Shown: piece by piece, positions 3,426 to 23,453 of the stretch
Layout: the number at the start of each line of letters is the position of its first letter
Position numbering within the stretch: the first letter of the stretch is position 1
Source: Candidatus Woesearchaeota archaeon
GTDB lineage: Archaea > Nanobdellota > Nanobdellia > Woesearchaeales > GW2011-AR4
Assembly: GCA_016185755.1 (NCBI GenBank)
Contig: JACPMX010000010.1
Span: 3,863-67,862, forward strand
Length of the DNA stretch: 64,000 nucleotides
Direction: 5' to 3'
The notes under the pieces: generated by a model
Database searches by the model: none
The model's input: only the letters and a program-made list of their open reading frames with translations
What the model was told of the DNA's origin: nothing
Translations under genes and position numbers: made by a program

Positions 3426-4352
3426 CTATTGTTTTTTAGGGATATAAGCTGCAAACTTCACAACCAAAGGCCTTTCCTTCATCATTCCGTCTGTCTTGTC
3501 ATAAGCCATTATCTTGAAATCCTTCTTTTCAGCGCAAAGCCTGTAAATGCTCTTAGGATTTATGCTGCAGCTTTGGAGCTTGCTTATTTCAACAGGCTTG
3601 TTGCCGGCATCCAAAATAAGGCCGTCCTTTGGATTTTTAAGGTTGTCATTCTCCTGCTTGGCAAAGATTATGGAATTTTGCCCTTTGTAAAGGACGATCT
3701 TTTCCACTGGACCGGGGCCTTCATAGTTGCCGCTTGCGTCATTGAAAAATAGGTTAATATTTGGTGTTCCGTATTGGTTGTAATGGAATACATACCTCGC
3801 TGGTGACCATATTGAAATTCCATTTGTACCTATATCCTGCGACGTCCCGGCATCTGATTCTATCTTTATTTTCTTAAAGCTTGCCTCTTCAAACTTGAGC
3901 TCAAAGTTCTTGTTCAAAAGCCCATAATCCTCTATCTGCCATTTTGTCAATGAGAACTCCTTAGTGCATATGCAATTATTGCTGCCGGAATCAATGCAGT
4001 CCTGGAAGAACTCTGCAAATTCGTAAAGGACTTTTTCAGTCCCTTTGTCGCAGTTCAATGACCATGCAAAAGACTTGTCATTATCATTAATTTCATTCAG
4101 GCACAGGTAAATGTCTTTTTCCTTGGCGCAGCTTGAAATAGAGGCAAATGATTCCTTTATCTTCCTGTAATCATCCAGGCCATAATCAATCTTTGCCCTG
4201 AACGAAGGGTTTATGGAGTAAGTCCCGAGCAGATTGGAATCTTTCTGCCCTGCTGCAACAGCCCCGGTTATTTTATTGGCATCAGTATATACGACAAGCC
4301 CCATCAACAGCGCCGGGATCAGCATCAGCAAAAAAAGGTCTTTTGCTTCCAT
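3426..4352 (-). CDS. secreted hypothetical protein
   Basis: 308 aa. N-terminal hydrophobic signal/anchor LFLLMLIPALLMGLVV. Cys-containing. Last gene of the surface cluster. Confidence 0.5.
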   Translation of the reverse strand: MEAKDLFLLMLIPALLMGLVVYTDANKITGAVAAGQKDSNLLGTYSINPSFRAKIDYGLDDYRKIKESFASISSCAKEKDIYLCLNEINDNDKSFAWSLNCDKGTEKVLYEFAEFFQDCIDSGSNNCICTKEFSLTKWQIEDYGLLNKNFELKFEEASFKKIKIESDAGTSQDIGTNGISIWSPARYVFHYNQYGTPNINLFFNDASGNYEGPGPVEKIVLYKGQNSIIFAKQENDNLKNPKDGLILDAGNKPVEISKLQSCSINPKSIYRLCAEKKDFKIMAYDKTDGMMKERPLVVKFAAYIPKKQ

Positions 4353-4353
4353 T

Positions 4354-5475
4354 TTATGATATTGCCCTTACCTCCTGTCCTGTTTTCTGCTCGAGAGCGA
4401 CTGCCCTGTTGTACCTGTCAGTTCCGCAGCATTCGTAATGCCAAAGCTCTGCAGAATATCTTCTGAAGCCTGCCTTGTACATTACCCCTTCAAGCTCTTT
4501 CCAGTCTGCAACCGTCATTGTTTTTTTGAACCTGACATCAACGGCTTTTCCGCTCATGTGCGGGCATGAAGCAAGCCCCTTATTGGGATTGCAGACATAC
4601 TTTGCTCTTTCCGCATCAGTTGGGAATCTTTGCGCGTATTTTTCAGGAGTCCTTCCTTCCCACAGGTCTCTTTGCTCCTGCTCAGACCTGAAAGCTGAAT
4701 AAACCTCAAGTTCTTTCCCTTTTTCCTTTGCAATCCTTTGCGCATCGGCTGCTTTTTGGTAAGCTTCTAATGTCAGCCTGCATTTGATTCCTTTTGCGCA
4801 CAAATTCTCGTCGCTAAAGTCCTTGAAGCCTGAAATCTCCTGCAGAGTGGGCATCTGCTCCGGGCCGATTATTCTTTTCTCTTCTTTGGGAATTCGCTTC
4901 AGCGTCTCTTCTTTCTTCTTTATGCTTTCATCCTTCAGAATCTCAAATTTCAATGGATCTTTCGAAATACCGATAATTTCTGTGCTGCCCCTTATGTCAT
5001 AGATATAGTTGTTAAGCTGGATTTCTGAAGGGTAATTGGCAATGTATCCGCTGAATTTTTCATTGAACTGCAGCTCAAGGTTTAATTTTATTTTATTCTC
5101 GCTGAAGCAGTCAACACCTTTGTCATTCCATAGGAAATAGCCGTAATATTTTCCGCACTCTTTAATTGGAGAATGCAGGGTTGGGTGCTCTCTTGGAGTC
5201 AGGATTTCGCTTGCATAAACCTCGCTTAATCCCCCGTCTCTCGCAAGGTCGTAAACTGCCTGCTGCAAAGAATACTTTGCTGACTGGTCGATGTAAAACA
5301 AGGCTCCCTCGGCTTTCATGTAAACTTTGAGCAGTGTGAATTGCCTGTCTCCGATCGGGGAGCTGGAAAACGTCCCTGTCTTTGACAAAAGAACAATAAA
5401 CAAGTAAATCAGGATTAATGATGACAGAATAACCAGTAAAGGCAGGAAAAAAAATGATGCTTTTTTATTTTTCAT
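4354..5475 (-). CDS. membrane-anchored peptidase M15 (VanY / D-Ala-D-Ala carboxypeptidase-like) domain protein
   Basis: 373 aa. N-terminal TM segment. C-terminal domain has CPHMSGKAVD (the H-x2-G-x-A-x-D zinc-ligand motif) and ELWH (E-x-x-H), the VanY/M15 signature. Confidence 0.6.
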   Translation of the reverse strand: MKNKKASFFFLPLLVILSSLILIYLFIVLLSKTGTFSSSPIGDRQFTLLKVYMKAEGALFYIDQSAKYSLQQAVYDLARDGGLSEVYASEILTPREHPTLHSPIKECGKYYGYFLWNDKGVDCFSENKIKLNLELQFNEKFSGYIANYPSEIQLNNYIYDIRGSTEIIGISKDPLKFEILKDESIKKKEETLKRIPKEEKRIIGPEQMPTLQEISGFKDFSDENLCAKGIKCRLTLEAYQKAADAQRIAKEKGKELEVYSAFRSEQEQRDLWEGRTPEKYAQRFPTDAERAKYVCNPNKGLASCPHMSGKAVDVRFKKTMTVADWKELEGVMYKAGFRRYSAELWHYECCGTDRYNRAVALEQKTGQEVRAIS

Positions 5476-5966
5476 TTTAGAGGTATATTTTTGGTTGATG
5501 GCTGGGCTATGTCTGATTTAAATGCGACTTCTATCGCTGCGCCATATGCTGGGACAGAGATGACATTTTCAGAGCATCCAAAATGCTGCAGGCTTGAGCA
5601 TCCCCTGCTCTTGAGCTTTTCTCCGTCTATGCAAAAAATGCTGCATTTATTTCCGAAATAATCATCCATGATCTGCATTATGCTCTTTTCAGCTAATTGA
5701 TTTTTCGAGCTGTCAAATCTTGACAATGCTATAAGCTCTGCTATGCTCATTTTTGAGTTGTTTATTTCGACTGGTGTCTTGAGTATATTTATCAAAGAGA
5801 TTGTGTCTGCAACATTGCCTGATTCTTCTGGTATCTGAAAAGTGGCTTTTCCAAGTGTAAGCTTTATCAGCAGGTAAAACACCAGGATGACGAAAGCGTA
5901 GGCTAGGATGGAAAAAAAGTCAAGGAATCCCATTCCCTTTTTTCTAGTTCGGCAAAACTGCATCAA
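5472..5966 (-). CDS. class-III-signal-peptide-like (pilin-like) membrane protein
   Basis: 164 aa. N-terminus RTRKKG/MGFLDFFSILAYAFVILVFYLLI: basic stretch, Gly, then a hydrophobic helix with an acidic residue at +5. This resembles prepilins. Confidence 0.45.
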   Translation of the reverse strand: MMQFCRTRKKGMGFLDFFSILAYAFVILVFYLLIKLTLGKATFQIPEESGNVADTISLINILKTPVEINNSKMSIAELIALSRFDSSKNQLAEKSIMQIMDDYFGNKCSIFCIDGEKLKSRGCSSLQHFGCSENVISVPAYGAAIEVAFKSDIAQPSTKNIPLK

Positions 5967-6459
5967 CAGTAAGCACCCCTTTTTTTATATTATCTTTGTC
6001 TTTTATCAGAACGTAAAAGTTTGTTGAAAGCCCCCTTGCAGCGCCCTCCCCGATTAATTTTGCTTCAACAAGCACTTTTTTCTCTTTATAGAGTGGCTCA
6101 TTGTAATAGGTGGTGTACACATCACCTGACTCAATATCTTCCAGCTCAAGCTTCGCAGATGCCTCCGAATTTACGCTGCCGTAATAAATTGAGTTCAGTA
6201 TGCTGCTTTTGAATTCTTCCGATGAGAATTTTTCCAGGTCTATTGTTCCGATGTACTGCCTTTTAATCTCATCATCAACATGGCTGATATCCTTTGACAG
6301 CAGCAAGCTATGCGTCAGCAATCTTGATTCTGTCTCGAAAACATCTATTTTTTCCTTGATGGCTGCATTTGCAACCAGTGTGATGGAGTAAAACACGAAA
6401 ATTGCAAAGATTATCCTAAAAAAGTTCAGTATGTCGTCCATTGATGCTGTTTTATTCAT
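5944..6459 (-). CDS. N-terminally anchored hypothetical protein
   Basis: 171 aa. TM helix IIFAIFVFYSITLV near the N-terminus. Overlaps its neighbours by 8 and 23 nt, so translationally coupled. Confidence 0.4.
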   Translation of the reverse strand: MNKTASMDDILNFFRIIFAIFVFYSITLVANAAIKEKIDVFETESRLLTHSLLLSKDISHVDDEIKRQYIGTIDLEKFSSEEFKSSILNSIYYGSVNSEASAKLELEDIESGDVYTTYYNEPLYKEKKVLVEAKLIGEGAARGLSTNFYVLIKDKDNIKKGVLTVDAVLPN

Positions 6460-6901
6460 TCCTGCTCACTTTGATTTTTCCTTCGGATTTGGAAAACCTG
6501 AAAGACTTGGCGCCTGCAACAGAATATTTCTCTGTATCAGCATGATTTCTTCCATAATGGTAGTTCTTTGGCATGCCTTCAGCGCCTATCCTTATTGTCG
6601 GTGTTTTGTCATCCTCATACTCTGTGATTTGCAGATTGAATTTTGACAAATCAAGCTTGTTAAAAGAATATTCATAGTCAACATTGCCGGGCGCGCTGTA
6701 GAGAGTGTTCATTAAAAGCGCAATATCCCTGCTCAGAAAAATGTTCTGGAATCCTGTATCGTTCTCTATGGACTTTACATATATTACCATCAATACAACC
6801 ACAAAAAGAAGCAGCGCGGCCATTGCAATATGAATCAGCATCTGCCTTATGGTAACTTGGCTTTTTTTGCTTGAGAAATGCAAAACTGCTCTTTTTTTCA
6901 T
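6452..6901 (-). CDS. N-terminally anchored hypothetical protein
   Basis: 149 aa. TM helix IAMAALLLFVVVLMVIYV after a basic N-terminus. Confidence 0.4.
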   Translation of the reverse strand: MKKRAVLHFSSKKSQVTIRQMLIHIAMAALLLFVVVLMVIYVKSIENDTGFQNIFLSRDIALLMNTLYSAPGNVDYEYSFNKLDLSKFNLQITEYEDDKTPTIRIGAEGMPKNYHYGRNHADTEKYSVAGAKSFRFSKSEGKIKVSRNE

Positions 6902-6935
6902 AATTATTCTTTAGAATTGCACTTTAAATGCTTTT

Positions 6936-7724
6936 CTAATGAGTTGTTCCTTGAGCGCCAGCACCGCCAATAGCTCCGCCGCTTGGCTTAAAATCGCTTT
7001 TTTTGTTTAATTCTCCGATTACAATGAAAATATTTTCCCCTTCCCTGATTTTGTCAAGAGAAACCTGCTTTATTCCCCAGCTGCTGCGCCAGAAGCCGCC
7101 GCATATTCCGTAAAGCACGAGATAATTGTAGCTGGGCCACCTGTTCGAGCTCGGCTTGGCATTGGCTTGGGTGCCGAAAAAATTTGAGTCTCTTGTTGAT
7201 GCCAAAAAGACTATTTTTTCTTCGAATGGCTTGCACTTTACCGGTGCTGCATCCCCTTTAAGGTCAAAATCATTTCCAGACCAGTCTGTTATGCCGCCTG
7301 TGTTTTGGTAGATGCACAGGCATGACTTTGACTGGCATAATTTCGGCCTTGATGTAATTATGCTTTCCCCTGTGCATTCTGTCCTAACCCCATTATCATT
7401 ATAGCTAAAGCCCGCAAGTATGTAGTCATCTGTAATGCTGTACACTGTTGTTTGTGTTGTCACAGCTTTTCTGTCGTTTGCAAGCTCTTTTACCCTGTTT
7501 GACAATGCCTCAAGGTTATTAACTGTTGACTGGTACTCCTGGCCGCTGAGAAAAAGGCCGCTGAGCCTTAAGATGTAATAAAACAATACAGAAAGTATTA
7601 TTATTCCAGCTATAATCTCGATCAGAGTCCATAAAGAAAGGTCTATTATTGATCTTTTGCCTTTGAAAAAAGGTATTTTTGGCATTTCATACCTTGGCAA
7701 CAGGTGCGGCACCGCCTTCAACAC
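6936..7724 (-). CDS. N-terminally anchored secreted hypothetical protein
   Basis: 262 aa. KGKRS then LWTLIEIIAGIIILSVLFYYIL, a pilin-like N-terminal helix. Gly-rich C-terminus. Confidence 0.4.
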   Translation of the reverse strand: MLKAVPHLLPRYEMPKIPFFKGKRSIIDLSLWTLIEIIAGIIILSVLFYYILRLSGLFLSGQEYQSTVNNLEALSNRVKELANDRKAVTTQTTVYSITDDYILAGFSYNDNGVRTECTGESIITSRPKLCQSKSCLCIYQNTGGITDWSGNDFDLKGDAAPVKCKPFEEKIVFLASTRDSNFFGTQANAKPSSNRWPSYNYLVLYGICGGFWRSSWGIKQVSLDKIREGENIFIVIGELNKKSDFKPSGGAIGGAGAQGTTH

Positions 7725-8118
7725 ATCTTCGGTCGCTTGTCATGACAAAATTATCGCAGTCCCTTGCAATCTTGTCATTGTCATTTTTATCGCAGCTTCT
7801 TGGCACATCATCACCATCGCCGTCATGAGTAACATCATTATTCTTGCATCCTGCATCAGAACATACACACGGGTCGCAGTCATCCTTAAGCCCATCTCCA
7901 TCCCTGTCATTGGATTGTGTTAGTACCAATCCCCTTTCCATTGCCCTTTGGGTGTCAAATCCGCATCTCGCGAGCGCTGCCTTGTAAAGCTCAGAAGCGG
8001 TTATTCTTGCAGCTTCTGAGGTAGGCCTTCTTATGAGATTAGTGCCTGTAATCAGGACGAGCACTCCTAAAACAAGCAGTACTATAAATCCGATTCCAAT
8101 AGCCTTTTTATTCATCAT
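7687..8118 (-). CDS. pilin-like protein with thrombospondin-type-3-like Ca-binding repeats
   Basis: 143 aa. N-terminus MMNKKAIGIGFIVLLVLGVLVLI looks like a class III signal. DRDGDGLKDDCD and HDGDGDDV are Asp-rich Ca-binding loops. Confidence 0.55.
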   Translation of the reverse strand: MMNKKAIGIGFIVLLVLGVLVLITGTNLIRRPTSEAARITASELYKAALARCGFDTQRAMERGLVLTQSNDRDGDGLKDDCDPCVCSDAGCKNNDVTHDGDGDDVPRSCDKNDNDKIARDCDNFVMTSDRRCVEGGAAPVAKV

Positions 8119-8119
8119 T

Positions 8120-8374
8120 TCAGCCTCTTAGCGGGTTAATGCAGCATACTTCCTTCTGAGCATTATCTTTTTCAGGGCATGTAAATTCGGTTTTTTCGTA
8201 TTGGCAGCTAGATTCATCAACACATTCTCCGTTCTTGGACTCGCAGGAGAAAGCAGCCTTGCTAAATCCTCCTGATGCATTGCCAAGCATATATATCAAA
8301 ATTACAACTGCTATCAAGGATATCGTTGCTATCACAATTATGTTTATTGGCAATCCCTGCGCTTTTCTTTTCAT
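8120..8374 (-). CDS. class III signal peptide (type IV pilin-like) protein
   Basis: 84 aa. MKRKAQG/LPINIIVIATISLIAVVIL followed by a small Cys-rich globular part. Confidence 0.6.
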   Translation of the reverse strand: MKRKAQGLPINIIVIATISLIAVVILIYMLGNASGGFSKAAFSCESKNGECVDESSCQYEKTEFTCPEKDNAQKEVCCINPLRG

Positions 8375-8619
8375 TTTAAATTAAAAATAATAAAGCTTGG
8401 TAATGTGATAAGCCTGCCAGCGTTTATTATTAAGTTTTTTGTCTTGCCTGGTTCTGGGGTCTTGTCCTTATCAAAGTCAATTGAGCCATATGATGTTCCT
8501 ATCCCCAAAAGCTGTTTTATATAGCCCCCAAAAAATATGGAAATCAAAAAAGCAAGTATTGCTAATATAAGCAGTATAACCCAGAAAGGTACTCCGCTTC
8601 CCTGGCCTTTTCTGTTCAT
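8371..8619 (-). CDS. class III signal peptide (pilin-like) protein
   Basis: 82 aa. MNRKGQG/SGVPFWVILLILAILAFLI. Confidence 0.55.
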   Translation of the reverse strand: MNRKGQGSGVPFWVILLILAILAFLISIFFGGYIKQLLGIGTSYGSIDFDKDKTPEPGKTKNLIINAGRLITLPSFIIFNLK

Positions 8620-8822
8620 GTGAATGCGCCACCAATCGCTTTTCCAAGATTTGCCATCCTGACGCTGATAGGGCCAATCCCAAAATACAGCAATATTATA
8701 AGCAAGATTACCGCTCCCGCTACCCCAAGCGCAAAATAGTTTACATCAGCTTTTCTGTTTTTCATGTTTTTCATTTGTTTTGCCTGCAATATAAATAATT
8801 TATTGTTTGACCGGTATTTCAT
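8616..8822 (-). CDS. small membrane protein
   Basis: 68 aa with a single TM helix ALGVAGAVILLIILLYFGI. Overlaps both neighbours. Confidence 0.3.
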   Translation of the reverse strand: MKYRSNNKLFILQAKQMKNMKNRKADVNYFALGVAGAVILLIILLYFGIGPISVRMANLGKAIGGAFT

Positions 8823-9696
8823 TGCAGTTCAGGCTCTGCAGGCTTTCTGCATCATACGGGATAAAAGACAGAAATGCGGCGTGCTCAAAAGGAACCCCGC
8901 TGAAATACGCCGCGAACCCGGCCCAATAAGTCCCCCCGACAATCATTGCTCCGCCGGTTAGGGAGATAAAAGTTCCTACTGGAACTCCAACAAATGGTGT
9001 TAAGAAAGCTGAAATCACCCCTCCGGCGCCGATGCCAAGCTTGACAACAGCAAATCCAAGGGCGACAGTTCCGACAGCAGGGGCAGTGTATTTTGTTTTT
9101 TCCCAGTAATTTTTGATTTTTTCCTTGCCTTTGATGTAAGTGAATACAACAGCATACTCATTATTTACAGAGGCATCAATCACATCCTCAATTTTCCTGT
9201 TGCCAAGCGAGGCCAGATATTTAGAATACTCCGATTCACCGGGCTTTTCTGTAGTGAATAGCTGCAGATAGTTCAATTTCTCATTTTCTGGATGTGCATT
9301 GCTGAGATAATCTGTGATGCCCTTTACCTTGATGTCTTTGTTAAGGGTTATTCTTGTGCATATTGTGCAGTATACATTGTCGTCTGAAAAAAGCTCCAGC
9401 TTTCCCCTGCCATACTTGTCCCAGCAGTCAAACATCGACGAGGCTATCTGACCCTTGACTGCATTTTCGTCTTTGTCATCTATCTTAAGCTCGATTTTAG
9501 GGCAGTTTATTTTCCCTGAAAAATCGGCATATTTCAGCTTCAGCCTTGAATGGGTAAGCACGCTTGTCTTGCATATCTGCTTTTCAGCTGCCTTGTTATA
9601 AGCCTCTTTGAGGCTTGCCCACGATGTGGCTGCGACAAAAAGTATTAATATAAAAATAACCACAAAAACGAATCCGTAGTTAATTGTATTGTCCAT
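8800..9696 (-). CDS. membrane-anchored secreted protein, paralog A of a tandem pair
   Basis: 298 aa. N-terminal TM. Shares CP(K/R)x(E/N)(L/I)KI and (D/L)CW(D/Y)K motifs with the adjacent 9698-10474 product. Gly-rich hydrophobic C-terminal segment. Confidence 0.5.
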   Translation of the reverse strand: MDNTINYGFVFVVIFILILFVAATSWASLKEAYNKAAEKQICKTSVLTHSRLKLKYADFSGKINCPKIELKIDDKDENAVKGQIASSMFDCWDKYGRGKLELFSDDNVYCTICTRITLNKDIKVKGITDYLSNAHPENEKLNYLQLFTTEKPGESEYSKYLASLGNRKIEDVIDASVNNEYAVVFTYIKGKEKIKNYWEKTKYTAPAVGTVALGFAVVKLGIGAGGVISAFLTPFVGVPVGTFISLTGGAMIVGGTYWAGFAAYFSGVPFEHAAFLSFIPYDAESLQSLNCNEIPVKQ

Positions 9697-9697
9697 A

Positions 9698-10474
9698 TTA
9701 GTTCATTAAAATGTCGCATTCCTCTCTGATTTTATCCTGCTTGCCCAGGCCTATGTAATAGGCTGATGTGTAAGCCTCTGTCTGCTCAACCAGCCACGTA
9801 GGCTTCATCGCCAGAAAATAGATTAAATATCTGCTGTTTGTGTCAAATTTTTGGTCGTCTATTTTTCCAGTTTTTCCGTGTCCATATGGAGTATACTGGG
9901 TCCAGCCGATGCCGCCCCATAAAAGGTACAGATTTCTTTGTGACCTTATCAGATACTCGAAATAGCTGATGGCTTCGTTTGGAATTTTGCTTGATTTAAG
10001 GTAATCATCAAGGCCTTCAAACATTCTTCCTCTTAATTTTTCATCAAATTCTATCTCTGAGCAGATTAGGCACTGGTAATATTTAGAGTCGCTGAAAAAG
10101 ATTGACTGCTCGAGAACGTTTCTGTTGCCTTCTGCCATTTTGTACCAGCAAAGCCTGAGCTCCTCTGCAGCTATTTTGTTTACTTCCTCTTGTGTTAATT
10201 TTCCAAAGCTGTATTTTTTAGAAGTCTTTCCATTCAATTCCACTTTATTTTCAAAGATTTTAATATTTCTTCTTGGGCAGTCAAGCTTTACAACGCTTTT
10301 CCCGAAAAACTTGGTTTGTGCCTGCGCCAAAACGCTCAGCCTGCATGTATCTACATCTGCATTTTCTTTAAGTTGGCCGGCAGTTGAATATGCGAAACTG
10401 AACAAAATTAGGGCGCCGGCCATGACTATTATCAGAACGACCAAAACCTGCGGCTCTACTCCTCTTTTGTTCAT
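9698..10474 (-). CDS. membrane-anchored secreted protein, paralog B of a tandem pair
   Basis: 258 aa. N-terminal TM VLVVLIIVMAGALILF. Conserved Cys spacing matches paralog A. Confidence 0.5.
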   Translation of the reverse strand: MNKRGVEPQVLVVLIIVMAGALILFSFAYSTAGQLKENADVDTCRLSVLAQAQTKFFGKSVVKLDCPRRNIKIFENKVELNGKTSKKYSFGKLTQEEVNKIAAEELRLCWYKMAEGNRNVLEQSIFFSDSKYYQCLICSEIEFDEKLRGRMFEGLDDYLKSSKIPNEAISYFEYLIRSQRNLYLLWGGIGWTQYTPYGHGKTGKIDDQKFDTNSRYLIYFLAMKPTWLVEQTEAYTSAYYIGLGKQDKIREECDILMN

Positions 10475-10682
10475 CTTACTTAAAGATTATGTTCATGGCC
10501 CTTAAAATGATAAATCCCATTACGCCTACTGTAAATAATGCTGCAAGAATGTAAAATAATGTCCTGAGGTTTATTTCAAAGGCTTTTTTGCTGTTAAAAA
10601 TTTGGATGTTATTTATTCTAACCATGCCAAAATACTTCAGAACCGGATATATAAATATGTCGAAATTAAATTTAGAACTGAG

Positions 10683-10964
10683 CTAAGTGCAGCAGCACTT
10701 CTTCCTTACGCCGTCAACAATGACGGAGTAGCCCGGCAATGGAGGCCTTCCTGAGCCGCAATCTGTTGCTGTCTCATCAGTTGCTGATCCGTCTGCATAT
10801 CCTGCTGACTTACAAGCCTGCTTGCAGTCAGTCGCCTCTGAAAGGCCTTTGCTGAAAAGGCCGAGCCTGCCTGTGAAAATCATGAAAAGGACGACAAGAA
10901 CGGCAAGCGCAATGGCTGCTATTATTATCACATTGATGGAAATGCCCTGTGCTTTCTTGCGCAT
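10683..10964 (-). CDS. class III signal peptide (pilin-like) protein, Cys-rich
   Basis: 93 aa. MRKKAQG/ISINVIIIAAIALAVLVVLF. C-terminus KKCCCT. Nearly the same prepilin-like leader as the 8120-8374 product. Confidence 0.6.
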   Translation of the reverse strand: MRKKAQGISINVIIIAAIALAVLVVLFMIFTGRLGLFSKGLSEATDCKQACKSAGYADGSATDETATDCGSGRPPLPGYSVIVDGVRKKCCCT

Positions 10965-11031
10965 ATCTTTGCCTCTTTGACATCTAATCTGTTGAGCAAG
11001 TTATATTTAAATATATCGGAACATGGCATCC

Positions 11032-11502
11032 TCATCCGCAAATGTCGAGTTTTGTGTACATAGTGGCTGTGCTTATCGGTATAGGGAACAGCTTTGACCT
11101 TTTCTCAGCCCCGCACTTCTTTCCGAGCTTTATGAGCGGCTGGTTTGCATCAGTATATGCCAGAAACTCGTACTCCATGTTCCACTTGTCAAATGTGCTC
11201 TCAAATATTTCCTTGGATACAGCCTCTACAAACCTGCATGAATCCTGGCCGTTGTCGCACACTACGCTTCTCGCCTGGGCGCAGTCCTGCAGCAACTCTG
11301 TCATTGTAAGCTGCGAGCAGTCCTTGGCAGCTGTCTTCAGCAGGGTGCTCAGCATATTGGATGCCGTCTCTGAGCTTACGAAGCCTTTCCTGTATTCTGT
11401 AGGGGCCTTGACAACCAGAAACCTGACAACAAAGACTGCAGCCACAAGTATCAAAACAACCACTATGGCCAATCCAAGTATCTCCATCTGGGCTTTTCTC
11501 AT
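11032..11502 (-). CDS. class III signal peptide (pilin-like) protein
   Basis: The ORF track extends to 11631. I place the start at the internal Met, giving MRKAQMEILGLAIVVVLILVAAVFVV. That start abuts the stop of the upstream gene at 11499-11501, so the two are coupled. Confidence 0.5.
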   Translation of the reverse strand: MRKAQMEILGLAIVVVLILVAAVFVVRFLVVKAPTEYRKGFVSSETASNMLSTLLKTAAKDCSQLTMTELLQDCAQARSVVCDNGQDSCRFVEAVSKEIFESTFDKWNMEYEFLAYTDANQPLIKLGKKCGAEKRSKLFPIPISTATMYTKLDICG

Positions 11503-12011
11503 TTTGTCATGGTCTCTATAGTCATTATGCCGAACCCGTGCCTTCTTGCAGCCGGGTCGTATATTGAAATCGGGACATTTGTAACAAACTTGCTCTTGAA
11601 GTCGCTTGTTTTCCTGGAATATAGGTTCCATCTGGCTTCATTCGGGTATATCTGCACTATGCTTACGTTGCTGTACTCAAGCAGGTCATAGTAATAAATC
11701 TCATTTTGCTTCATGAGGCTTTGCGCAGGATCAAGCTTCATGATATCAACGCAGTTGTCAATTATTATATTGTCCCCGCTGCACTGGACTTCAGGCAAAA
11801 ACATCACTCTTTGCGCTATGCCGACAGACTTGAGCTGGGACAGCTCTTCCTTTTCAAGCTCTATATTGCTCTTGATGACTTTTACATAAAAAATGAATCC
11901 TATGATTATCAGTATGAAAAATACGAACAGGACCGCTATAGTCTCCCCTATCTGGATTTGTGATTTAGTAGATAAGGGTGCACGAGTATATCTGCGCATT
12001 CTTGTTTTCAC
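11499..12011 (-). CDS. N-terminally anchored pilin-like protein
   Basis: 170 aa. KSQIQIGETIAVLFVFFILIIIGFIF hydrophobic helix follows a basic N-terminus. Confidence 0.45.
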   Translation of the reverse strand: MKTRMRRYTRAPLSTKSQIQIGETIAVLFVFFILIIIGFIFYVKVIKSNIELEKEELSQLKSVGIAQRVMFLPEVQCSGDNIIIDNCVDIMKLDPAQSLMKQNEIYYYDLLEYSNVSIVQIYPNEARWNLYSRKTSDFKSKFVTNVPISIYDPAARRHGFGIMTIETMTK

Positions 12012-12960
12012 CTGCCAGAATCTTTGCCGATTCTGATATTATATCTGCATTCTCCTTGTTAAAGTCAGGAGCTGCGAGGATTCTGTTTAATTGGGTTAGT
12101 GCACTGTTATAGAATTGGTTGCACTGAACTTGCCTGCTTGAAGTGCCGCTTTGGACAAGTTTCTTTGTCCTTTCAGCGTATATTTTAGTCACAAGGTTGA
12201 GCTTCAAAAATGCATTTTGCATGCTGCATTCATAAGCCTCCAGGGTGTCAGAGTATACTGCAGCAACCAGGGAATTTCTGCCGATATAAATAGAGCTGCC
12301 TCTAGAAAGCCATGAGTTCCCGTTTTTTTGGTAGAATTCTACAGCCCCTTTTTCTGCATCGCCAATAACCCTAAGGGAAGTAACATCCTCATCGCGCATT
12401 TTTCCCAGCGAGCTTGGAAGAGGAATCATTTCCTCAAAAGCCACGATCCTTACCTTGTAGTTGTTGGCATTTACTATTGGGGCAGCTGTTTGATAAAATT
12501 CCTTATTAAGCTCTGCAGGAAGGGTCTTGTTTATCTCCCTTGCAAGGTTGGTATTGCCTATGATTATGTACCTTGCCCCTGTGCTTGTGGCATAAAGAAG
12601 GTTTGTTGCCCTGTACGGCGCGTTGAAAGACAATGTCTGTGTTGTTATCCTGCTTCCCCTGATGGAGCCAGGCGCAAACAAAATAAGGCTCTGGTATTGT
12701 TTTGACACTCCGCCTATTGATATCCTGCCGCAGCCTACATCAATATCCGATTCCGGTATGTTTACTGTGTTTATAGTGTCAGAGCTTATGCCTGCCCCGG
12801 TTATTATGGCTTCTATGCTCTTGAGCACAGCTGCCTTTGTGGATGTTTCTGACACGCTTTTCTGCTTTGCAACTACAACAGTGAAAAAAAGAAGTATGGC
12901 GGCGCCTGCAACCAGCACGAAAAGCCAGTTGAACTGCACTTCAAATCCTTTCTTGTTCAT
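11965..12960 (-). CDS. class III signal peptide (pilin-like) protein, large
   Basis: 331 aa. MNKKG/FEVQFNWLFVLVAGAAILLFF: the G-F junction with an acidic residue at +2 resembles bacterial and archaeal prepilins. Confidence 0.55.
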   Translation of the reverse strand: MNKKGFEVQFNWLFVLVAGAAILLFFTVVVAKQKSVSETSTKAAVLKSIEAIITGAGISSDTINTVNIPESDIDVGCGRISIGGVSKQYQSLILFAPGSIRGSRITTQTLSFNAPYRATNLLYATSTGARYIIIGNTNLAREINKTLPAELNKEFYQTAAPIVNANNYKVRIVAFEEMIPLPSSLGKMRDEDVTSLRVIGDAEKGAVEFYQKNGNSWLSRGSSIYIGRNSLVAAVYSDTLEAYECSMQNAFLKLNLVTKIYAERTKKLVQSGTSSRQVQCNQFYNSALTQLNRILAAPDFNKENADIISESAKILAGENKNAQIYSCTLIY

Positions 12961-12969
12961 TTTGAAAAG

Positions 12970-13458
12970 CTAATTCCATTGCCCCAGCGAAGCATGATTC
13001 CCCTTTCCCTCCAGTTTCAGGCTTATTTTGCCGTTTAAAGCCTTTATGCACAGCACGTCCGGCTCGACAGATATCTTTCCGGCAAAAAATGATTCTTTGG
13101 CTATGTTCTCAACAAGAAAAACATTCTTTCCAGTGCTGGAGAGTATGCTGTCTTTGATTATAGGATCAATGCTGCCCGGAATGTTGGGGCTTTCAAAACT
13201 CTCGACAAAGCATGCCTGCGTATAGCCGGAGCATAATTGAAGGTCTTTTCTCTTTACGCTTCCGAAATCGCTGGATATGCTTTCCACTGCATTCTGCAGG
13301 TCGTTCTTGAACTTGAGGCAGGACACCTGTTCAGCCCTGTTCTTGAAGTTCTGGACTGCGTTATAGCCGTAGACCAGTATGAAAGATATGAGTATTATCG
13401 TCAGTATGTATATGAACACCTGGCTGTAGATTTGCGCCTTGGATTTTTTCGCTGCCAT
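12970..13458 (-). CDS. class III signal peptide (pilin-like) protein
   Basis: I place the start at the internal Met, giving MAAKKSKAQ/IYSQVFIYILTIILISFIL. That start lies 1 nt after the stop of the 1692-aa gene. The longer ORF would overlap that gene by 125 nt. Confidence 0.5.
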   Translation of the reverse strand: MAAKKSKAQIYSQVFIYILTIILISFILVYGYNAVQNFKNRAEQVSCLKFKNDLQNAVESISSDFGSVKRKDLQLCSGYTQACFVESFESPNIPGSIDPIIKDSILSSTGKNVFLVENIAKESFFAGKISVEPDVLCIKALNGKISLKLEGKGNHASLGQWN

Positions 13459-13459
13459 A

Positions 13460-16400
13460 TCATTTTTTTCTCTTGGATTTTGATTTGGCAAGCTCGTAAA
13501 GTTTTCCAATATTGTCCTTAGGTTTTGCGCTTGGCTGCCTTTGCTTGTCTTTTTTTGCAATCTGGGCAAGTTTTGAGATAGCATCCTCTTTTGGCTTCTT
13601 TTGCTCGGGTTTTTTTGTTTCCTTGCTCTCTTTTGGCTGCTCCTTTATGGTTTTTTCCGCAGCTCTAGGTGCGCCGAACGGCTCGAAAAGCTTTGCTCTT
13701 TCCTGCTCTTTCTGCTGCTCTTTCTTTTTTAATGCTTCCCTTATATTTGCATCTTCCTGCTTTTGGATTGTTTGCTTCGCCTGCTGCTGCGGCTGGAAAA
13801 TAGGTTTTGGGTGCTCCTCCCCCTTTGGCATTTCAAATTTTTCTGCTTTTCTTTTGGTTATTGCTTTATGGGCCAGGTATCCAAATCCTGACAGCAGGAG
13901 AATTATCCCTATGGCAAATGCCAATACCTTGGCGAAGCTTGATTTTGGGAAATCGTCAGGGTTTACAGGGCTTGTTCCTGCGTCAATTTCTTCCTTGTCT
14001 GTAAAGCTGTCTTTGTCTGTGTCTGCAGCGTTTGGGTTGGTGCTTTCGCCATAAGTCCTTTGTACATTAAACTCTTCAAGATTTGTAAGCCCGTCAGAAT
14101 CCGAATCCAGCCCTGAATCATTCGGATTATTTGGGTCGAAATTATTTTTAATTTCCCATTCGTCAGGAATTCCGTCGCCGTCAGTGTCTTTTATTCCTGC
14201 GCTTTCCTGCTCGTCAGGAATTCCGTTGCAGTTTGCATCGTTGCTCTGGCACCTTTTGCACGCAGACAGTATGCACTGCAGGCCCTCTCCGCAGTCCTCG
14301 TTAATGCCGCAGCTCTTGTCTTCAGGGCACTTGGATGGGCAGTGCCCTCCGCAGTCAACATCTGATTCGCCCGGGCTTAGCTTGCTGTCGGAGCAGCTTT
14401 CCTGCGGCTTGCAGAATCCAAAGCTGCAGAATCCGCTGTCGCAGTCGTTGCTGCTTGAGCATGCCTTGTTGATTTCGCATTTTCTGCATTGCCCTCCGCA
14501 GTCAACATCGCTTTCTTCCTGATTTTTTGCATTGTCGTCGCATTTTGGGGCTGAGCATATTCCGCTGTTGCAGAAATTCGATACGCAGTCGCTGTTTATC
14601 GAGCATTTTTTGCCTGTGATGCACAAGTCGCATCCGGAGCCGCAGTCCACATCCGGCTCTTTTTCATCTTTTATGCCGTTTGTGCAGTTGAGGGGCTTTA
14701 GGCTTGTGTCCACGGTTATTCCGTCGCTCTCGCTTATATTGCTCGATAGCCCGGCAATGTTCTGCGCCTTGACCCTGAAGAGATACCTGTTGCCGTTCAG
14801 TAGCCCCAGGCTCGTCCCGTTTGGCCTTGTTGCTATTACATATTCATTATTAAGCAGGCTTTTGGTATTATTTAGTACAACTCTTGATGTTCCAGATTCA
14901 ACAATAGAGTAAACATGGGAGATGACTCTGGATTCATTGTCTATGCTGTTCCATTTGACCCTGAGTACATCAGTGCTGAAAGTGAATTCTGGCTTGTCCT
15001 GGAGTGAGCTGCTGTCATTGATGGATAATATTGCCGGCGGGGTCAGGTCTATTGTAAATTCAACCTGCTTCACATCAGAGAATTTCTGCAGGAACTGGTC
15101 CTTGCATACAACATAAAAAGTGTGCTTTCCGGCAGTTGAGCTCAGCTGCCTTGTATGGCTGTATCCGGGCGCTCCAAATATGTCGCCGTTCTGCGCTGTA
15201 TTGTCTGTCTCGGAGAATTTGCATTGTGATTTCTTGTTTGTCTCTATGGCAAGTATAGCACTTGTTGAATTGAAAAATTCCGGCGTATGGGAGATTATTG
15301 AAATTGGAATTGTCAGATCAATCTTGATTTGCACCTCTTTTGCATCTGAAACAAGCTCTGCCCTGTTTTCGCATGCTATGAAGTATGTATGGCTGCTTCC
15401 ATTCCCGGCAGTTATTGGCTGCCTGCTGATAAGCTTGAAATTTCCCTCATCAAATCCCTCAAATTTGCCCTCCATATTGGCAAATTCCTTTGTGGTGGTG
15501 CTGAACTTGCACCTGACAGGCTCGTCCGATTCGACAGCAAACGCAGTTTCAAAAGGCTCCTCAATGATGGGATTTGGGAATGCAAATGCGCTTTTCAGCT
15601 GCGGAATTGTCGGGTCAACGTTAATATCAAACGACTTGAATGTTATGCCCTTTTGGTCTTTGCATCTTATGTTAAGCTTGTGTGCATTTGCATCTCCGCT
15701 CGCTATCTTGCTGAAGCCCAGTATTGTATGGATTGTTCCTGAAGTGTTTGTGAAAGGCTCCATGAACTCGAACTCGAAATTATTGTCAAGCGAGAATCTG
15801 CAGGATGCGTCATTGTCTGTTTCAGCGACAACATCAAAGACTGATTTGGGCGCGACTCCAAACCTCGGCTTTAAAAGGCTGATTACGCCGGGGTTTGCGT
15901 CAACCACAAATGAAACAGAGCCAGTGGCCCTGTTCCTGGCAAAGTCGCTTGCTGTGACCTCAAGATTTTTGTTCCCGTCAGAAATGTTCAAAGTTGCTGT
16001 GAATGCCTTGTTGTCTATAGTGGAAAAAGACTGCTTTATCTCCTCAGAGTTTATCTTGGCTGATTCCAGGCTGACTTCCTTGTCGAATGCAAGCTTTATA
16101 TTTACCGCCGAGGTGTTGACTATGCTGCCGTCAGGGGGGGTTATTTCAAGCAGCGGCTTGCTGTTGTCTATGACTATTATCTGGGATACTGCAGGGTCCA
16201 TGAATATGTTGTTTTTGTTTTTTGCATCCAGCTCTAGCGTGTACTCCCCATTCGGCAGTGTTTCTGCGACCGAAAATGACGCCTTTATATTCAGCTCAGC
16301 GCCGGCCTGCAGGGTGACGATCAATCCTGTTTTTTTGTTCACAAGCCTTGAGTGGGTTATTGCTGCAGGCTCGAAAAACTGCACGTCTATGGCCGGCTTT

Positions 16401-18538
16401 TGATTGCTTGTGAATATTTTGTCAAGGGCTTTTAGGCCGTCTGTCACATTGATGCTCAATATTCTCGGCCCGCCTGTTGTGCTGTGGGCTTCTATCAGCA
16501 GTTTTTTTGCCTCTCCGATGTTTTTTGCAGGGTCTTGGGAATAATACCTCAGTACATTTGTGCCTTCGTTCAATGTGGCAAGCTTGTCCCCGTTGCTGCC
16601 GTCAAAAACATTGAGATTGCTTACTATGGCAATCCTGCCTGTAGTTGAAGTGTTGTAAGGGTGCCCGCCTGCACCGCAAGGCTCGATGCAGAAAAAAGTA
16701 GCGTAGTCCTGCGATGTCTTTAGTATTACGGAGCTGTTGATGCTCGTCCTGTCGTAAATCTGTATGATAAGGCTGTCTATTATCCCTTTCTTGATTATCG
16801 GGAGCAATGTGGTGTTTGGGGCAAAGAAATCAGCCTCGCATGAGCTTGTTGTGCAGTCAGCTTTTGCGTCTCCGTCCGCGTTCTTGGAGCAAGCGCTGTT
16901 TATATTCTGGCATACTTTTATGCCGCACTCATCAAGTGACGGGTTTGTTATCCTGTTGTTTTCGTCATGAGTTATTTGTGCATTGCTGCACTGCTCTGCA
17001 TCATAGTCTTTGCACACTACCTCCTCGCAGTTTTTTGATTTTCCGTTGCGGAAATAGCACATGAAGCTGCCTTCAGATAACGCGTTTGATTTTTCCCTTG
17101 TGCAGAAGTCAAAAACCTCGTTAAATGACCTTAAGTTTTCCAAAGATTGCGTTCCCTTTTCCTCGCACCACTGGCAGTTGTATTCTGTTGTGCTTACGCA
17201 TGCCCCTATCCCGATCTGCTCGGCCAGTTTCTTCCACTTGCAGCCGCCGACCCTGCAGTTGTCCCTGCCGCATGCGTCTTCTGTCTTGTAGTCATAGCAG
17301 CCCATTGAGGGATCGCAGCCGAAGCATGAGTTTACAGCAGAGTGCGACCTGTCATAAAAACAGTACCTGTTTGATTCGCAGTCGTCAAGATTGTAAAACA
17401 GCCCAAACGGGTTCGCTGCATTGTAATTGCAGCTGACCTTGCTCAGGCATGAAGGCTTGTTGTTGCTCACAATGCATATCTGTGTTGGCAGGCATGCCGT
17501 GCCCTCTGCTATGAGCCTGTTTGAAGCGTCGCAGGAGAATGCCTTGTTGAACTTATCGCTGAATTTGTTTTTCACGCCCTGCTGGAAATTTTTTAGGAAT
17601 AGCTCGGGGAAGTTTGTGTTCAGGTAATTACTGTATCTTGTATAGTATGATTCATGTATGCAGAAATTGTTGCTTGCAGGATGGTCCATGCATTCTACAT
17701 TGCCCAATGTGGATGTTTTTGTTATTGTGGGGGTTGCGGTCTGCAGGTTGTACCTTGCCTTGATTTGGTAGGTGTATGTTGTGTCAAACATCAGGTCTCC
17801 TGAAGAGTCCTCAAAAGAATTTGTGTTTGTTATTCCTGCCATAGCGAAGTTTGTGCAGCCGCTGTCCTTGCACCTCATCACATCATATGAGACTGCATTG
17901 CTGCTGCACTCGTCTTTCCATTTAAGCTGGAATTTTTTTTGCCCTTTGGCCGGGATTATTTCAAGATTGCTCAGCTTTGGCAGGTAGCTTGGATTGCTGC
18001 ATCCTACTCCTTCAATAGAGCAGCTCCCCCCTGATTCAGCGCTGTCTGCAGGGCTTGTACACCCAAAATCACCTCCTTCAAAATCAGCGCAGCCATTATT
18101 GTCGTTGTCTATTCCGTCGTTGCACTGCGGCACCGGGCAAACCTGGTTGCAGTTTGTCTGGCCTTTGTTGAACGTCAATCCAGTTCCTTTGCACTGGGCT
18201 TCCGGGGCAATCGAGCCGCCGAGCTCTGAGCAGCAGCAGCCAAGAGAGCACGCGTCAACAGCCAGGCATGCCTTGTTTGGGAAAAAGAATGTTGTTGAGC
18301 AGTCATTGTAGTTTGCAGGTCCATCGGGATTTTGCTGCGACTTGTAATATCCCGGGAAGCTTGTTTCAGGCTTTGGGCAGCATTCTTTGTCCCTTAAAGC
18401 AAGCCTGTCAGCGGAGCATGCAAGCTGGCCGGCACCGGGATTGCTGCAGCATCCAACTTCATCGGCATAAACAGCCTGCAGGCTAATTAAAAATAAAAAA
18501 GCTGAAAATACAATCGCCTCTTTTTTTAATCTTGTCAT
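13460..18538 (-). CDS. giant Cys-rich type I membrane surface protein (adhesin-like) with thrombospondin type 3 Ca-binding repeats
   Basis: 1692 aa. Sec signal peptide MTRLKKEAIVFSAFLFLISLQAVYA. Three repeats of about 95 aa ending in IDLT(I/P)P. Three Cys-rich modules each opening DVDCG(G/S)xC. TSP3-like DTDGDGIPDEWE, DSDSDGLTNLEE and DTDKDSFTDKEE. C-terminal TM VLAFAIGIILLLSGFGYL, then a Lys/Glu/Gln-rich tail of about 130 aa. Confidence 0.8.
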   Translation of the reverse strand: MTRLKKEAIVFSAFLFLISLQAVYADEVGCCSNPGAGQLACSADRLALRDKECCPKPETSFPGYYKSQQNPDGPANYNDCSTTFFFPNKACLAVDACSLGCCCSELGGSIAPEAQCKGTGLTFNKGQTNCNQVCPVPQCNDGIDNDNNGCADFEGGDFGCTSPADSAESGGSCSIEGVGCSNPSYLPKLSNLEIIPAKGQKKFQLKWKDECSSNAVSYDVMRCKDSGCTNFAMAGITNTNSFEDSSGDLMFDTTYTYQIKARYNLQTATPTITKTSTLGNVECMDHPASNNFCIHESYYTRYSNYLNTNFPELFLKNFQQGVKNKFSDKFNKAFSCDASNRLIAEGTACLPTQICIVSNNKPSCLSKVSCNYNAANPFGLFYNLDDCESNRYCFYDRSHSAVNSCFGCDPSMGCYDYKTEDACGRDNCRVGGCKWKKLAEQIGIGACVSTTEYNCQWCEEKGTQSLENLRSFNEVFDFCTREKSNALSEGSFMCYFRNGKSKNCEEVVCKDYDAEQCSNAQITHDENNRITNPSLDECGIKVCQNINSACSKNADGDAKADCTTSSCEADFFAPNTTLLPIIKKGIIDSLIIQIYDRTSINSSVILKTSQDYATFFCIEPCGAGGHPYNTSTTGRIAIVSNLNVFDGSNGDKLATLNEGTNVLRYYSQDPAKNIGEAKKLLIEAHSTTGGPRILSINVTDGLKALDKIFTSNQKPAIDVQFFEPAAITHSRLVNKKTGLIVTLQAGAELNIKASFSVAETLPNGEYTLELDAKNKNNIFMDPAVSQIIVIDNSKPLLEITPPDGSIVNTSAVNIKLAFDKEVSLESAKINSEEIKQSFSTIDNKAFTATLNISDGNKNLEVTASDFARNRATGSVSFVVDANPGVISLLKPRFGVAPKSVFDVVAETDNDASCRFSLDNNFEFEFMEPFTNTSGTIHTILGFSKIASGDANAHKLNIRCKDQKGITFKSFDINVDPTIPQLKSAFAFPNPIIEEPFETAFAVESDEPVRCKFSTTTKEFANMEGKFEGFDEGNFKLISRQPITAGNGSSHTYFIACENRAELVSDAKEVQIKIDLTIPISIISHTPEFFNSTSAILAIETNKKSQCKFSETDNTAQNGDIFGAPGYSHTRQLSSTAGKHTFYVVCKDQFLQKFSDVKQVEFTIDLTPPAILSINDSSSLQDKPEFTFSTDVLRVKWNSIDNESRVISHVYSIVESGTSRVVLNNTKSLLNNEYVIATRPNGTSLGLLNGNRYLFRVKAQNIAGLSSNISESDGITVDTSLKPLNCTNGIKDEKEPDVDCGSGCDLCITGKKCSINSDCVSNFCNSGICSAPKCDDNAKNQEESDVDCGGQCRKCEINKACSSSNDCDSGFCSFGFCKPQESCSDSKLSPGESDVDCGGHCPSKCPEDKSCGINEDCGEGLQCILSACKRCQSNDANCNGIPDEQESAGIKDTDGDGIPDEWEIKNNFDPNNPNDSGLDSDSDGLTNLEEFNVQRTYGESTNPNAADTDKDSFTDKEEIDAGTSPVNPDDFPKSSFAKVLAFAIGIILLLSGFGYLAHKAITKRKAEKFEMPKGEEHPKPIFQPQQQAKQTIQKQEDANIREALKKKEQQKEQERAKLFEPFGAPRAAEKTIKEQPKESKETKKPEQKKPKEDAISKLAQIAKKDKQRQPSAKPKDNIGKLYELAKSKSKRKK

Positions 18539-23403: not shown

Positions 23404-23422
23404 TTTAAATCCCAAAACGAAG

Positions 23423-23436
23423 CTTTTTATATATAT
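23423..23436. promoter_or_regulatory. palindromic TATA element in a 50-bp divergent intergenic region
   Basis: TTTTTATATATATTT lies between the minus-strand arginase-fold gene (start 23403) and the plus-strand acyltransferase-like gene (start 23454). Confidence 0.35.
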
Positions 23437-23453
23437 TTGCAAAGATTTGGTTT

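Follow-up and report, generated by a model that had tools for sequence, protein, structure and literature searches.

Woesearchaeota are abundant, uncultured and presumed symbiotic archaea. We analysed a 64,000-nucleotide stretch of a contig from a Candidatus Woesearchaeota archaeon, a tiny inhabitant of groundwater (GenBank JACPMX010000010.1, assembly GCA_016185755.1; hereafter the window), in which an earlier reading of the DNA made without database searches (the sequence-only reading) had picked out seven open reading frames (ORFs) with prepilin-like leaders. These seven ORFs are a slice of a chromosomal Woesearchaeales operon of ~19 kb and ~20 genes (3426-22097, minus strand), whose genes form a single co-directional string from 22097 down to 3426. 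The operon's products include two large surface proteins rich in Cys, five pilin-like proteins that are conserved, one to three mini-pilins, a variable pilin-like set and a leader-fused VanY/M15 peptidase. About 15 of its products, all unannotated, are predicted from their sequences to start with a standard archaeal pilin-type signal peptide.

An NCBI entry from the metagenome-assembled genome (MAG) of a Candidatus Woesearchaeota archaeon, with locus tag HYX08_03995, has exactly the sequence of the 331-amino-acid protein encoded at 11965-12960. Through alignment of homologues of this protein we recovered 36 loci from MAGs of Woesearchaeota and Nanoarchaeota, and the gene order proved identical in all 36, each over the part that its length covers. 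Genes for proteins of 793, 394 and ~1700 amino acids are followed by those for 162, 331, 166 and 156 amino acids, by one to three copies of a gene for ~90 amino acids, by a variable block (258, 298, 84, 143, 262, 149, 171 and 164 amino acids), and by genes for a VanY-like protein of 373 and a protein of 308 amino acids. Orthologs of the core genes are found in 28 to 36 loci. Housekeeping genes border the operon, with MCM, TBP and RNase P p30 at one end and RPA at the other, and because these flanks and the synteny are kept, the operon belongs to the core chromosome and is not a mobile island. The individual genes of the operon, in the order of transcription, are as follows; a slash marks the predicted cleavage junction.

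19716-22097, minus strand: g793, first operon gene; secreted and Cys-rich, with a signal peptide of the Sec type (…FASFSIFAEAGGG), then a Gly/Arg/Pro-rich stretch
18535-19719, minus strand: g394, conserved pilin-like, leader MRLKLKS/QVTMLLIVG; no Pfam match; 23 loci
13460-18538, minus strand: g1692, giant Cys-rich adhesin-like protein with a Sec signal peptide, immunoglobulin-like and TSP3-like repeats and a C-terminal transmembrane helix
12970-13458, minus strand: g162, conserved pilin-like, leader MAAKKSKA/QIYSQVFIYIL; 36 of 36 loci
11965-12960, minus strand: g331, largest conserved pilin-like protein, leader MNKKG/FEVQFNWLFVLVAG
11499-11999, minus strand: g166, conserved pilin-like, leader …STKS/QIQIGETIAVLFVFF, start as in the gene call; 33 loci
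11032-11502, minus strand: g156, conserved pilin-like, leader MRKA/QMEILGLAIVVV
11001-11016, minus strand: A/T-rich TATA-like element ATATATTTAAATATAA, read from the sequence, ~40-50 nucleotides upstream of the g93 ATG
10683-10964, minus strand: g93, mini-pilin of ~90 amino acids, leader MRKKA/QGISINVIIIAAIAL, small head with six Cys
10476-10625, minus strand: g49, candidate ORF of 49 amino acids, below the usual ORF cutoffs, leader …NSKKA/FEINLRTLFYIL
9698-10474, minus strand: g258, variable pilin-like, leader MNKRG/VEPQVLVV; orthologs keep KK[GA]; paralogous to g298
8800-9696, minus strand: g298, paralogous to g258, with two or three additional hydrophobic segments at its C-terminus
8616-8774, minus strand: g68, small candidate ORF, leader MKNMKNRKA/DVNYFALGVAG, start inferred at an internal Met; weak positional analogues only
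8371-8619, minus strand: g82, small candidate pilin-like ORF, leader MNRKG/QGSGVPFWVILL; poorly conserved
8120-8374, minus strand: g84, divergent g93 paralogue, leader MKRKA/QGLPINIIVIA
7687-8118, minus strand: g143, variable pilin-like, leader MMNKKA/IGIGFIVLL, Asp/Cys-rich C-terminus; orthologs NKK[GS] or NKRG
6936-7685, minus strand: g262, variable, leader MPKIPFFKGKRS/IIDLSLWTLIEII, start inferred at a Met; orthologs keep [KR]K[SG] before the helix
6452-6901, minus strand: g149, variable, leader …SSKKS/QVTIRQMLIH; orthologs KK[SAG], KRG or RKS before the helix
5944-6459, minus strand: g171, variable, N-terminus MNKTASMDDILNFFRIIFAIF, junction less distinct
5472-5963, minus strand: g164, variable, leader …TRKKG/MGFLDFFSIL; orthologs have a basic residue then Gly (KKG, NKG) before the helix
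4354-5475, minus strand: g373, pilin-type leader (MKNKKA/SFFFLPLL) fused to a VanY/M15 D-Ala-D-Ala peptidase domain
3426-4352, minus strand: g308, last operon gene, N-terminal hydrophobic segment without a basic-small junction (MEAKDLFLLMLIP); 15 loci

The window is archaeal in content (RadA, RPA, TBP, MCM, both PolD subunits, Cdc6, a ribosomal-protein operon and SecY), its G+C is even at ~0.43, and it gave no tRNA or Rfam match. We rejected a mobile element or provirus as the source of the gene string on its uniform composition, its housekeeping flanks and the synteny conserved with those flanks. Spurious short ORFs were rejected for the core genes by their orthologs in 28-36 loci, a rejection that does not extend to g49, g68 and g82.

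All seven ORFs that the sequence-only reading had listed are found, with the N-termini it quoted, at the positions it gave; they lie on the minus strand. Two of them (11032-11502 and 12970-13458) start at an internal ATG of a longer ORF; the first start (MRKAQ) is backed by a 156-amino-acid NCBI protein and the second (MAAKKSKAQ) by the 162-amino-acid gene call on independent contigs, and both agree with the ortholog alignments. We then scanned 553 ATG-started candidates of at least 60 amino acids, on both strands of the window, with a strict leader pattern consisting of [KR][KR][GAS] at most 15 residues from the ATG followed by an uncharged hydrophobic core. Twelve distinct ORFs carry this pattern; 11 of them fall in 4354-13458, and the twelfth is a classic archaeal pilin at 53068-53559. 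Since 39 ORFs of the window have an N-terminal hydrophobic stretch of some kind and only 12 match strictly, the leader motif is not a general property of ORFs with hydrophobic N-termini. No strict match arose in 40 mononucleotide shuffles, which are a weak control, as shuffled DNA holds far fewer ORFs; by our own arithmetic, the chance that 11 of 12 random matches would fall inside one 9-kb stretch of the 64 kb is ~1e-8. The density of leaders is far above chance.

The scan and the homologue alignments thus bear out the earlier proposal of a dense set of small proteins with prepilin-like (class III-type) leaders, some of which behave like major or minor pilin paralogues. The original list of seven was sound as far as it went and incomplete, as nine more leader-bearing ORFs were found: 18535-19719 (KLKS/QVTM), 11499-11999 (STKS/QIQIGE), 10476-10625 (SKKA/FEINL), 9698-10474 (NKRG/VEPQ), 8616-8774 (NRKA/DVNY), 4354-5475 (NKKA/SFFF), 6936-7685, 6452-6901 and 5472-5963.

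The alignments show a junction of the form [KR][KR]-[ASG] followed by Q that is conserved across the 36 syntenic loci and hundreds of database homologues, and six non-homologous families of the operon keep it. The sequence-only reading had named as its own point of failure that the leaders might turn out to be ordinary Sec signal anchors with no conserved junction once more homologues were aligned; the junction is conserved in that alignment. Counts by family are given below, with positions numbered from the predicted cut.

g93, 120 database homologues: -2 K or R 118; -1 A 57, G 47, S 16; +1 Q 114; +2 G 72, S 42, few D or E; +4 S 119; +6 N 120
g156, 90 homologues with a called leader: -2 K or R 84; -1 S 45, A 41, G 4; +1 Q 90; +3 E 90
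g162, 34 distinct orthologs: -2 K or R 22; -1 S 17, A 14, G 2; +1 Q 33; +5 Q 29
g166, 31 distinct orthologs: -2 K or R 27; -1 S 16, A 11; +1 Q 28; +6 E 28
g394, 18 distinct orthologs: -2 K 14 (K or R 15); -1 S 15; +1 Q 16
g331, 21 orthologs: -2 K or R 21; -1 A 12, G 9; +1 F 20 (~95%); +2 E 21
g84, 20 relatives: -1 S 10, A 9, G 1; +1 Q 16
g373, 9 orthologs: -3 K or R 9; -2 K 9; -1 A 5, S 3, G 1

The g93 pattern is repeated in 132 representatives at 50% identity (G at +2 in 109), and the leader is 5 residues long in 88 of the 120 g93 homologues and mostly 4-7 residues long in g156. Variable families likewise keep the basic-basic-small triplet before the helix. Q stands at +1 in g93, g84, g82, g156, g162, g166, g394 and g149, and another residue in g331 (F), g258 (V), g143 (I), g164 (M) and g373 (S). 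The motif is missing from g308, g793 and g1692, which serve as internal negative controls. When the g93 and g156 families were compared with hhalign, only 7 leader residues aligned, so that the leader appears as a common processing signal of unrelated proteins and not as a mark of common descent.

These leaders agree with the FlaFind-type class III rule on three points: a charged residue at -2, G, A or S at -1, and an uncharged hydrophobic domain of ~20 residues near the N-terminus. The same residues at -1 and -2 define the archaeal class III rule (PMC4371748), and the Methanococcus Epd pilins are cut at RA/QI and at KG/QV, KG/QL or KG/QI, with Q at +1 obligatory for the peptidase EppA, as confirmed by mass spectrometry (PMC4371748, PMC3875500). 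The sequence-only reading had taken K-A-Q-G as a departure from the archaeal rule. This was not borne out: the site reads K(-2) A(-1) / Q(+1) G(+2), a canonical order with the same form as the Epd sites. In g93 and its relatives Q is followed by G or S and in rare cases by D or E; the remaining Q-type families have M, I, L or V at that place. Because this residue differs between families, the only site common to all of them is [ASG]/Q. We infer both the cleavage and its position from these alignments.

The g93 family comprises 310 homologues and 3060 clusters at 50% identity (E <= 0.001), none with a Pfam match, and each locus holds 1-3 copies in tandem. Its AlphaFold2 (AF2) model (predicted local distance difference test score, pLDDT, 76) has a helix at residues 10-44 and a small three-stranded sheet. 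Six Cys are found in the head in 104 of 120 homologues, the head ends in CCC or CC, and a Foldseek search with it returned defensin-like matches only, all non-significant. An AGAGG directly precedes the g93 ATG and T-rich runs follow its stop (10630-10682, minus strand); given these runs and the TATA-like element upstream, g93 may be transcribed separately and strongly. Its tandem copies, its apparent own TATA-like element and the very large family make g93 the likely major subunit. The ORFs at 8120-8374 (g84) and 10683-10964 (g93), whose mature parts the sequence-only reading had called unrelated, are full-length paralogues (30% identity, E = 8e-11) that share an FSK motif and a C-terminal CC. 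At the position of the neighbouring candidate g49, a 47-amino-acid gene is called in locus L006 and weak analogues occur in L027 and L016; its leader (…NSKKA/FEINLRTL) resembles the KKG/FEVQ of the 331-amino-acid protein.

Among the conserved core, g156 has 763 homologues and g331 has 187 at E <= 0.001; the best 120 of the latter share 53-77% identity, the window's own protein aside, and none carries a Pfam domain. The AF2 model of g331 (pLDDT 84.9; predicted template modelling score, pTM, 0.80) shows a helix at 3-58, a beta-rich domain and a C-terminal helical bundle, and no significant relative of g331 was found in the PDB. The g156 protein matches TIGR02537, the archaellin/pilin N-terminal model, at 17.2 bits (cutoff 20), with weak matches in 5 of 23 orthologs; 3 of the 23 also match the N-terminal model of bacterial PilV weakly. 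No other operon member matched TIGR02537. Because they are strictly syntenic and slowly evolving, we consider g162, g331, g166 and g156, perhaps with g394, to be the likely minor-pilin initiation or tip complex.

The two large proteins lie at the 5' end of the operon. In g793, GGGRGRRGGGSPPPPPP directly follows the signal peptide; it has no Pfam match and no [KR][GAS] junction, and its homologues, found in 17 of 36 loci, are always upstream of g394. The g1692 protein, present in 34 of 36 loci, gave sub-threshold matches to Big_3_3 and TSP3_bac, the latter also listed for its orthologs, and ends in the transmembrane helix and a long Lys/Glu/Gln-rich tail predicted to be cytoplasmic. Both would be large Cys-rich adhesin-like partners of the pilin-like proteins. 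In the variable block, g298 has lost its basic-small leader here and in close relatives (MDNTINYGF…), and the distant orthologs compared (L029, L031, L032 and L022) retain KKA, KKS or RKA leaders. Found in 17 loci and always near the 3' end of the operon, g373 scores 26.5 bits against Pfam VanY (cutoff 25) and 26.2 against Peptidase_M15 (cutoff 27), a VanY/M15 match is also listed for one ortholog, and the metal-ligand motifs HxxxxxxD (HMSGKAVD) and ExxH (ELWH, in ELWHYE) are intact. That an archaeon encodes a putative peptidoglycan-directed enzyme is a hint that its hosts or prey are bacterial. The variable downstream set, g373 included, would be modular pilins or surface-displayed effectors.

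Taken with the junctions, this gene content leads us to the reading that we think probable, if well short of certain: the operon products would be subunits of a type IV filament or of a surface display, class III-processed and assembled by genes elsewhere. Their leaders, mostly of 3-8 residues, would end in [KR][KR]-[ASG], followed by Q (or F, V, I, M or S) and by a hydrophobic helix of ~20 residues, in the early part of which one or two polar residues are conserved. The precursors would first be inserted through Sec, for which SecY and a YidC/EMC3-like insertase are encoded in the window. An aspartyl prepilin peptidase of the PibD/FlaK/EppA type, encoded elsewhere, would then trim the leader between the small residue and Q, and an unlinked CpaF/TadC-type ATPase and platform would polymerise the exposed helices or hold them at the surface. 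Of these predicted steps, Sec insertion is the only one with strong sequence evidence. What the analysis shows is the leader motif, its presence in families that are not homologous, the synteny and the predicted layouts of helix and head; we infer filament formation and the role of each gene. The AF2 layouts of g93 and g331, a long N-terminal helix with a head, are those outlined above, and neither retrieved a solved pilin at a significant score.

Several points weigh against this reading. No operon member passes any curated pilin model, and neither PF04021 (Class_IIIsignal) nor PF07790 matched; for PF04021 this held even at E <= 10 with leaders and full proteins, and in all 23 g156 orthologs. 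Searching leaders and complete proteins against Pfam and NCBIfam, also at relaxed thresholds, yielded no usable family other than VanY for g373 and the sub-threshold TIGR02537 for g156, PDB profile searches by sequence found nothing, and no AF2 model matched a solved pilin significantly. The g331 and g156 proteins are unusually conserved for pilins (53-85% identity), and ~15 pilin-like genes in one operon exceed the need of any characterised pilus. A basic N-terminus with a transmembrane helix also fits a plain signal anchor. Finally, neither the window nor the 10 kb on either side of g331 in any of the 36 loci encodes a T2SSE-type ATPase, a platform protein or a prepilin peptidase: an A24-type (polytopic GxGD) peptidase was found neither in the operon nor in the window nor in the related loci, and regular expressions for the T2SSE Walker A and GxGD motifs returned nothing or non-membrane proteins only. 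Pilin operons apart from their ATPase are known: the pilus genes of M. maripaludis are spread over four or more locations, and the pilins of Hfx. volcanii are not co-transcribed with PilB/PilC (PMC3875500, PMC4371748). Loci for the CpaF/TadC type IV pilus ATPase and platform have been reported across cluster-2 DPANN including Woesearchaeota (PMC11291902).

The same class III processing could instead serve a short pseudopilus or bindosome-like scaffold on which adhesins and enzymes, the M15 peptidase among them, would be displayed at the cell envelope, making the locus an attachment organelle. The sheer variety of ~15 leader-bearing proteins in one operon, one of them an enzyme fusion, the two co-encoded giant adhesin-like proteins and the high conservation of the core proteins would all suit such a scaffold, and surface proteins that form no filaments are known to carry class III leaders in Sulfolobales and other groups (PMC4371748; bioRxiv 10.64898/2026.04.22.720090). 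However, the g93 family resembles a classic major subunit in being tiny, multi-copy and enormous as a family, with a conserved helix and a variable head, and the operon holds no substrate-binding or transporter gene. We regard the scaffold as unlikely, though deserving to be kept in view.

Less probable still, in our estimate, is that the leaders are ordinary uncleaved N-terminal signal anchors of type II membrane proteins in a lineage-specific envelope complex, with the lysines reflecting the positive-inside rule and no prepilin peptidase involved. The missing peptidase and ATPase genes in the window and the 36 loci, the lack of above-threshold pilin-model matches and of structural matches to pilins, and the statement, in the preprint on the groundwater MAGs studied here, that DPANN genomes lack type IV pilus components (10.1101/2020.05.14.094862) would all speak for such anchors. 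Yet the positive-inside rule accounts neither for a residue at -1 that is always small (120 of 120 in g93, 90 of 90 in g156) with a near-invariant Q at +1 in otherwise unrelated families, nor for the conserved polar residues at +2 to +6, nor for the fixed leader length of 4-6 residues. Moreover, g308, another N-terminal transmembrane protein of the operon, lacks the motif, and pilus ATPase and platform loci were later reported in Woesearchaeota (PMC11291902).

The sequence-only model of a non-canonical cut after the Gly of K-A-Q-G by a dedicated peptidase, distinct from the one for the KKG/VSP pilin, finds some footing in the small residue after Q in the g93 family (G 72 and S 42 of 120; G in 109 of 132 representatives) and in the existence of EppA as a second, Q+1-specific peptidase in M. 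maripaludis (PMC4371748), but is scarcely credible, as K-A/Q is already within the rule, the other Q-type families have M, I, L or V and no small residue after Q, some g93 relatives have D or E there, the cut would put Q at -2, where archaeal enzymes require a charge (PMC4371748), and strictly conserved non-Q members such as g331 (F at +1) speak against a Q-specific enzyme for the operon. A cut after Gly is not needed, and the D and E variants would disfavour it if these residues are not tolerated at -1, as the requirement for G, A or S implies. Since F, V, I, M or S stands at +1 in conserved members of the operon, one broad enzyme of the PibD kind would be a simpler reading than a second, Q-specific peptidase, which is nonetheless conceivable, with EppA as a precedent. 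The specific claim of a new cleavage rule is not supported, and for that claim the value of the check is negative.

Returning to the reading of the operon products as class III-processed filament or display subunits, the closest parallels among known systems are uneven. The Epd pili of M. maripaludis (type IV filament 'system 1', DUF361/PF04021, processed by EppA) share with the operon short leaders (5-13 residues in Epd) that end in [KR][GA] and are followed by Q at +1, a major pilin of very small size (74 amino acids in Epd) accompanied by several larger minor pilins, and a multi-gene pilin operon apart from the ATPase/platform locus with an adhesin-like protein in the cluster (PMC3875500, PMC4371748, bioRxiv 10.64898/2026.04.22.720090). 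Unlike the Epd pilins, however, the operon proteins give no PF04021 match, Ser is as common as Ala at -1, and the Glu at +5 (QxSxExxxL) is not kept, with N at +6 in g93, E at +3 in g156, E at +6 in g166 and Q at +5 in g162 instead. The woesearchaeal mini-pilin also differs by its six-Cys head, and the operon by lacking an EppA-like gene and by its ~15 leader-bearing genes, which include non-Q members and an enzyme fusion.

Bacterial minor-pilin and adhesin operons (fimU-pilVWXY1E; GspH-K; ComGC-GG) likewise encode a fixed set of conserved pilin-like proteins, four or five in number and with one far larger than the rest, beside the major subunit and an adhesin-like protein of very large size, and 3 of 23 g156 orthologs match PilV weakly, as noted above. 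There is no relation in sequence or fold beyond leader and helix, though, and the junction here is archaeal (charged -2, Q at +1) and not G/F…E5, so the analogy would be one of function only. Modular pilins such as Streptococcus sanguinis PilB and the Sulfolobus bindosome proteins place a module behind a class III leader and helix (PMC8179133; PMC4371748), as g373 would with its VanY/M15 domain; a peptidoglycan-peptidase module on an archaeal pilin was not found described in the literature searched, and the activity and display of g373 are putative. The 'dark matter' pilin islands of DPANN (Makarova et al. 2019; PMC6393860) also consist of unannotated small signal-peptide proteins read as divergent pilins, and the type IV pilus loci of cluster-2 DPANN (Hamm et al. 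2024; PMC11291902) include CpaF/TadC loci in Woesearchaeota. Such islands and loci are recognised by the ATPase and TadC encoded beside them, whereas the operon has neither in 36 loci and a different, strictly conserved gene content. Within the literature searched, these families, a conserved assembly-gene-free Woesearchaeales operon, the large number of leader genes and the peptidase fusion appear to be undescribed.

The operon thus supplies a conserved and concrete inventory of parts, so far unannotated, for a surface filament or an apparatus of attachment. Several of its large families lie outside all Pfam and NCBIfam models, the mini-pilin family alone with >3000 clusters at 50% identity, and the leader rule [KR][KR][ASG]/Q can be used to annotate them; the leader-fused VanY peptidase is a testable hint on the type of host. 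As a bolder extension, which we consider doubtful, the operon might encode a Woesearchaeales-wide core-genome organelle for host attachment and cell-wall breaching, made up of a mini-pilin filament, a tip complex of four or five proteins, giant adhesins and a pilin-anchored M15 peptidase acting on bacterial peptidoglycan. If so, the hosts would be bacteria rather than archaea, and the assumption that pilus-bearing ultrasmall groundwater cells must be bacteria of the candidate phyla radiation (CPR) would be overturned. The groundwater-MAG preprint used pili to assign ultrasmall cells imaged by cryo-electron microscopy to CPR, DPANN being said to lack pilus components (10.1101/2020.05.14.094862). 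The operon, the classic pilin at 53068 and the loci of PMC11291902 sit uneasily with that premise.

The classic pilin lies 40 kb from the operon in the same window:

53068-53559, minus strand: classic archaeal type IV pilin, …SSKKG/VSPLIATVLLIAF

It matches TIGR02537 at 28.1 bits (cutoff 20) and UpsA at 34.6 bits, below the cutoff of that model, and suggests that the organism makes other class III substrates. Immediately downstream, 52596-53066 (minus strand) is an ORF of 156 amino acids with no Pfam match, and the nearby EMC3/YidC-like insertase (51848-52594) adjoins SecY. Directly upstream of the operon and on the same strand, 22189-23442 (minus strand) encodes an arginase-family protein with an N-terminal hydrophobic segment; the gene is missing from that position in L005 and is probably outside the operon. 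Many GTDB representative MAGs with the operon (L007, L015, L016, L019, L020, L023, L024 and others) are titled "uncultured Methanosarcinales archaeon", which is probably a placeholder or a mislabel.

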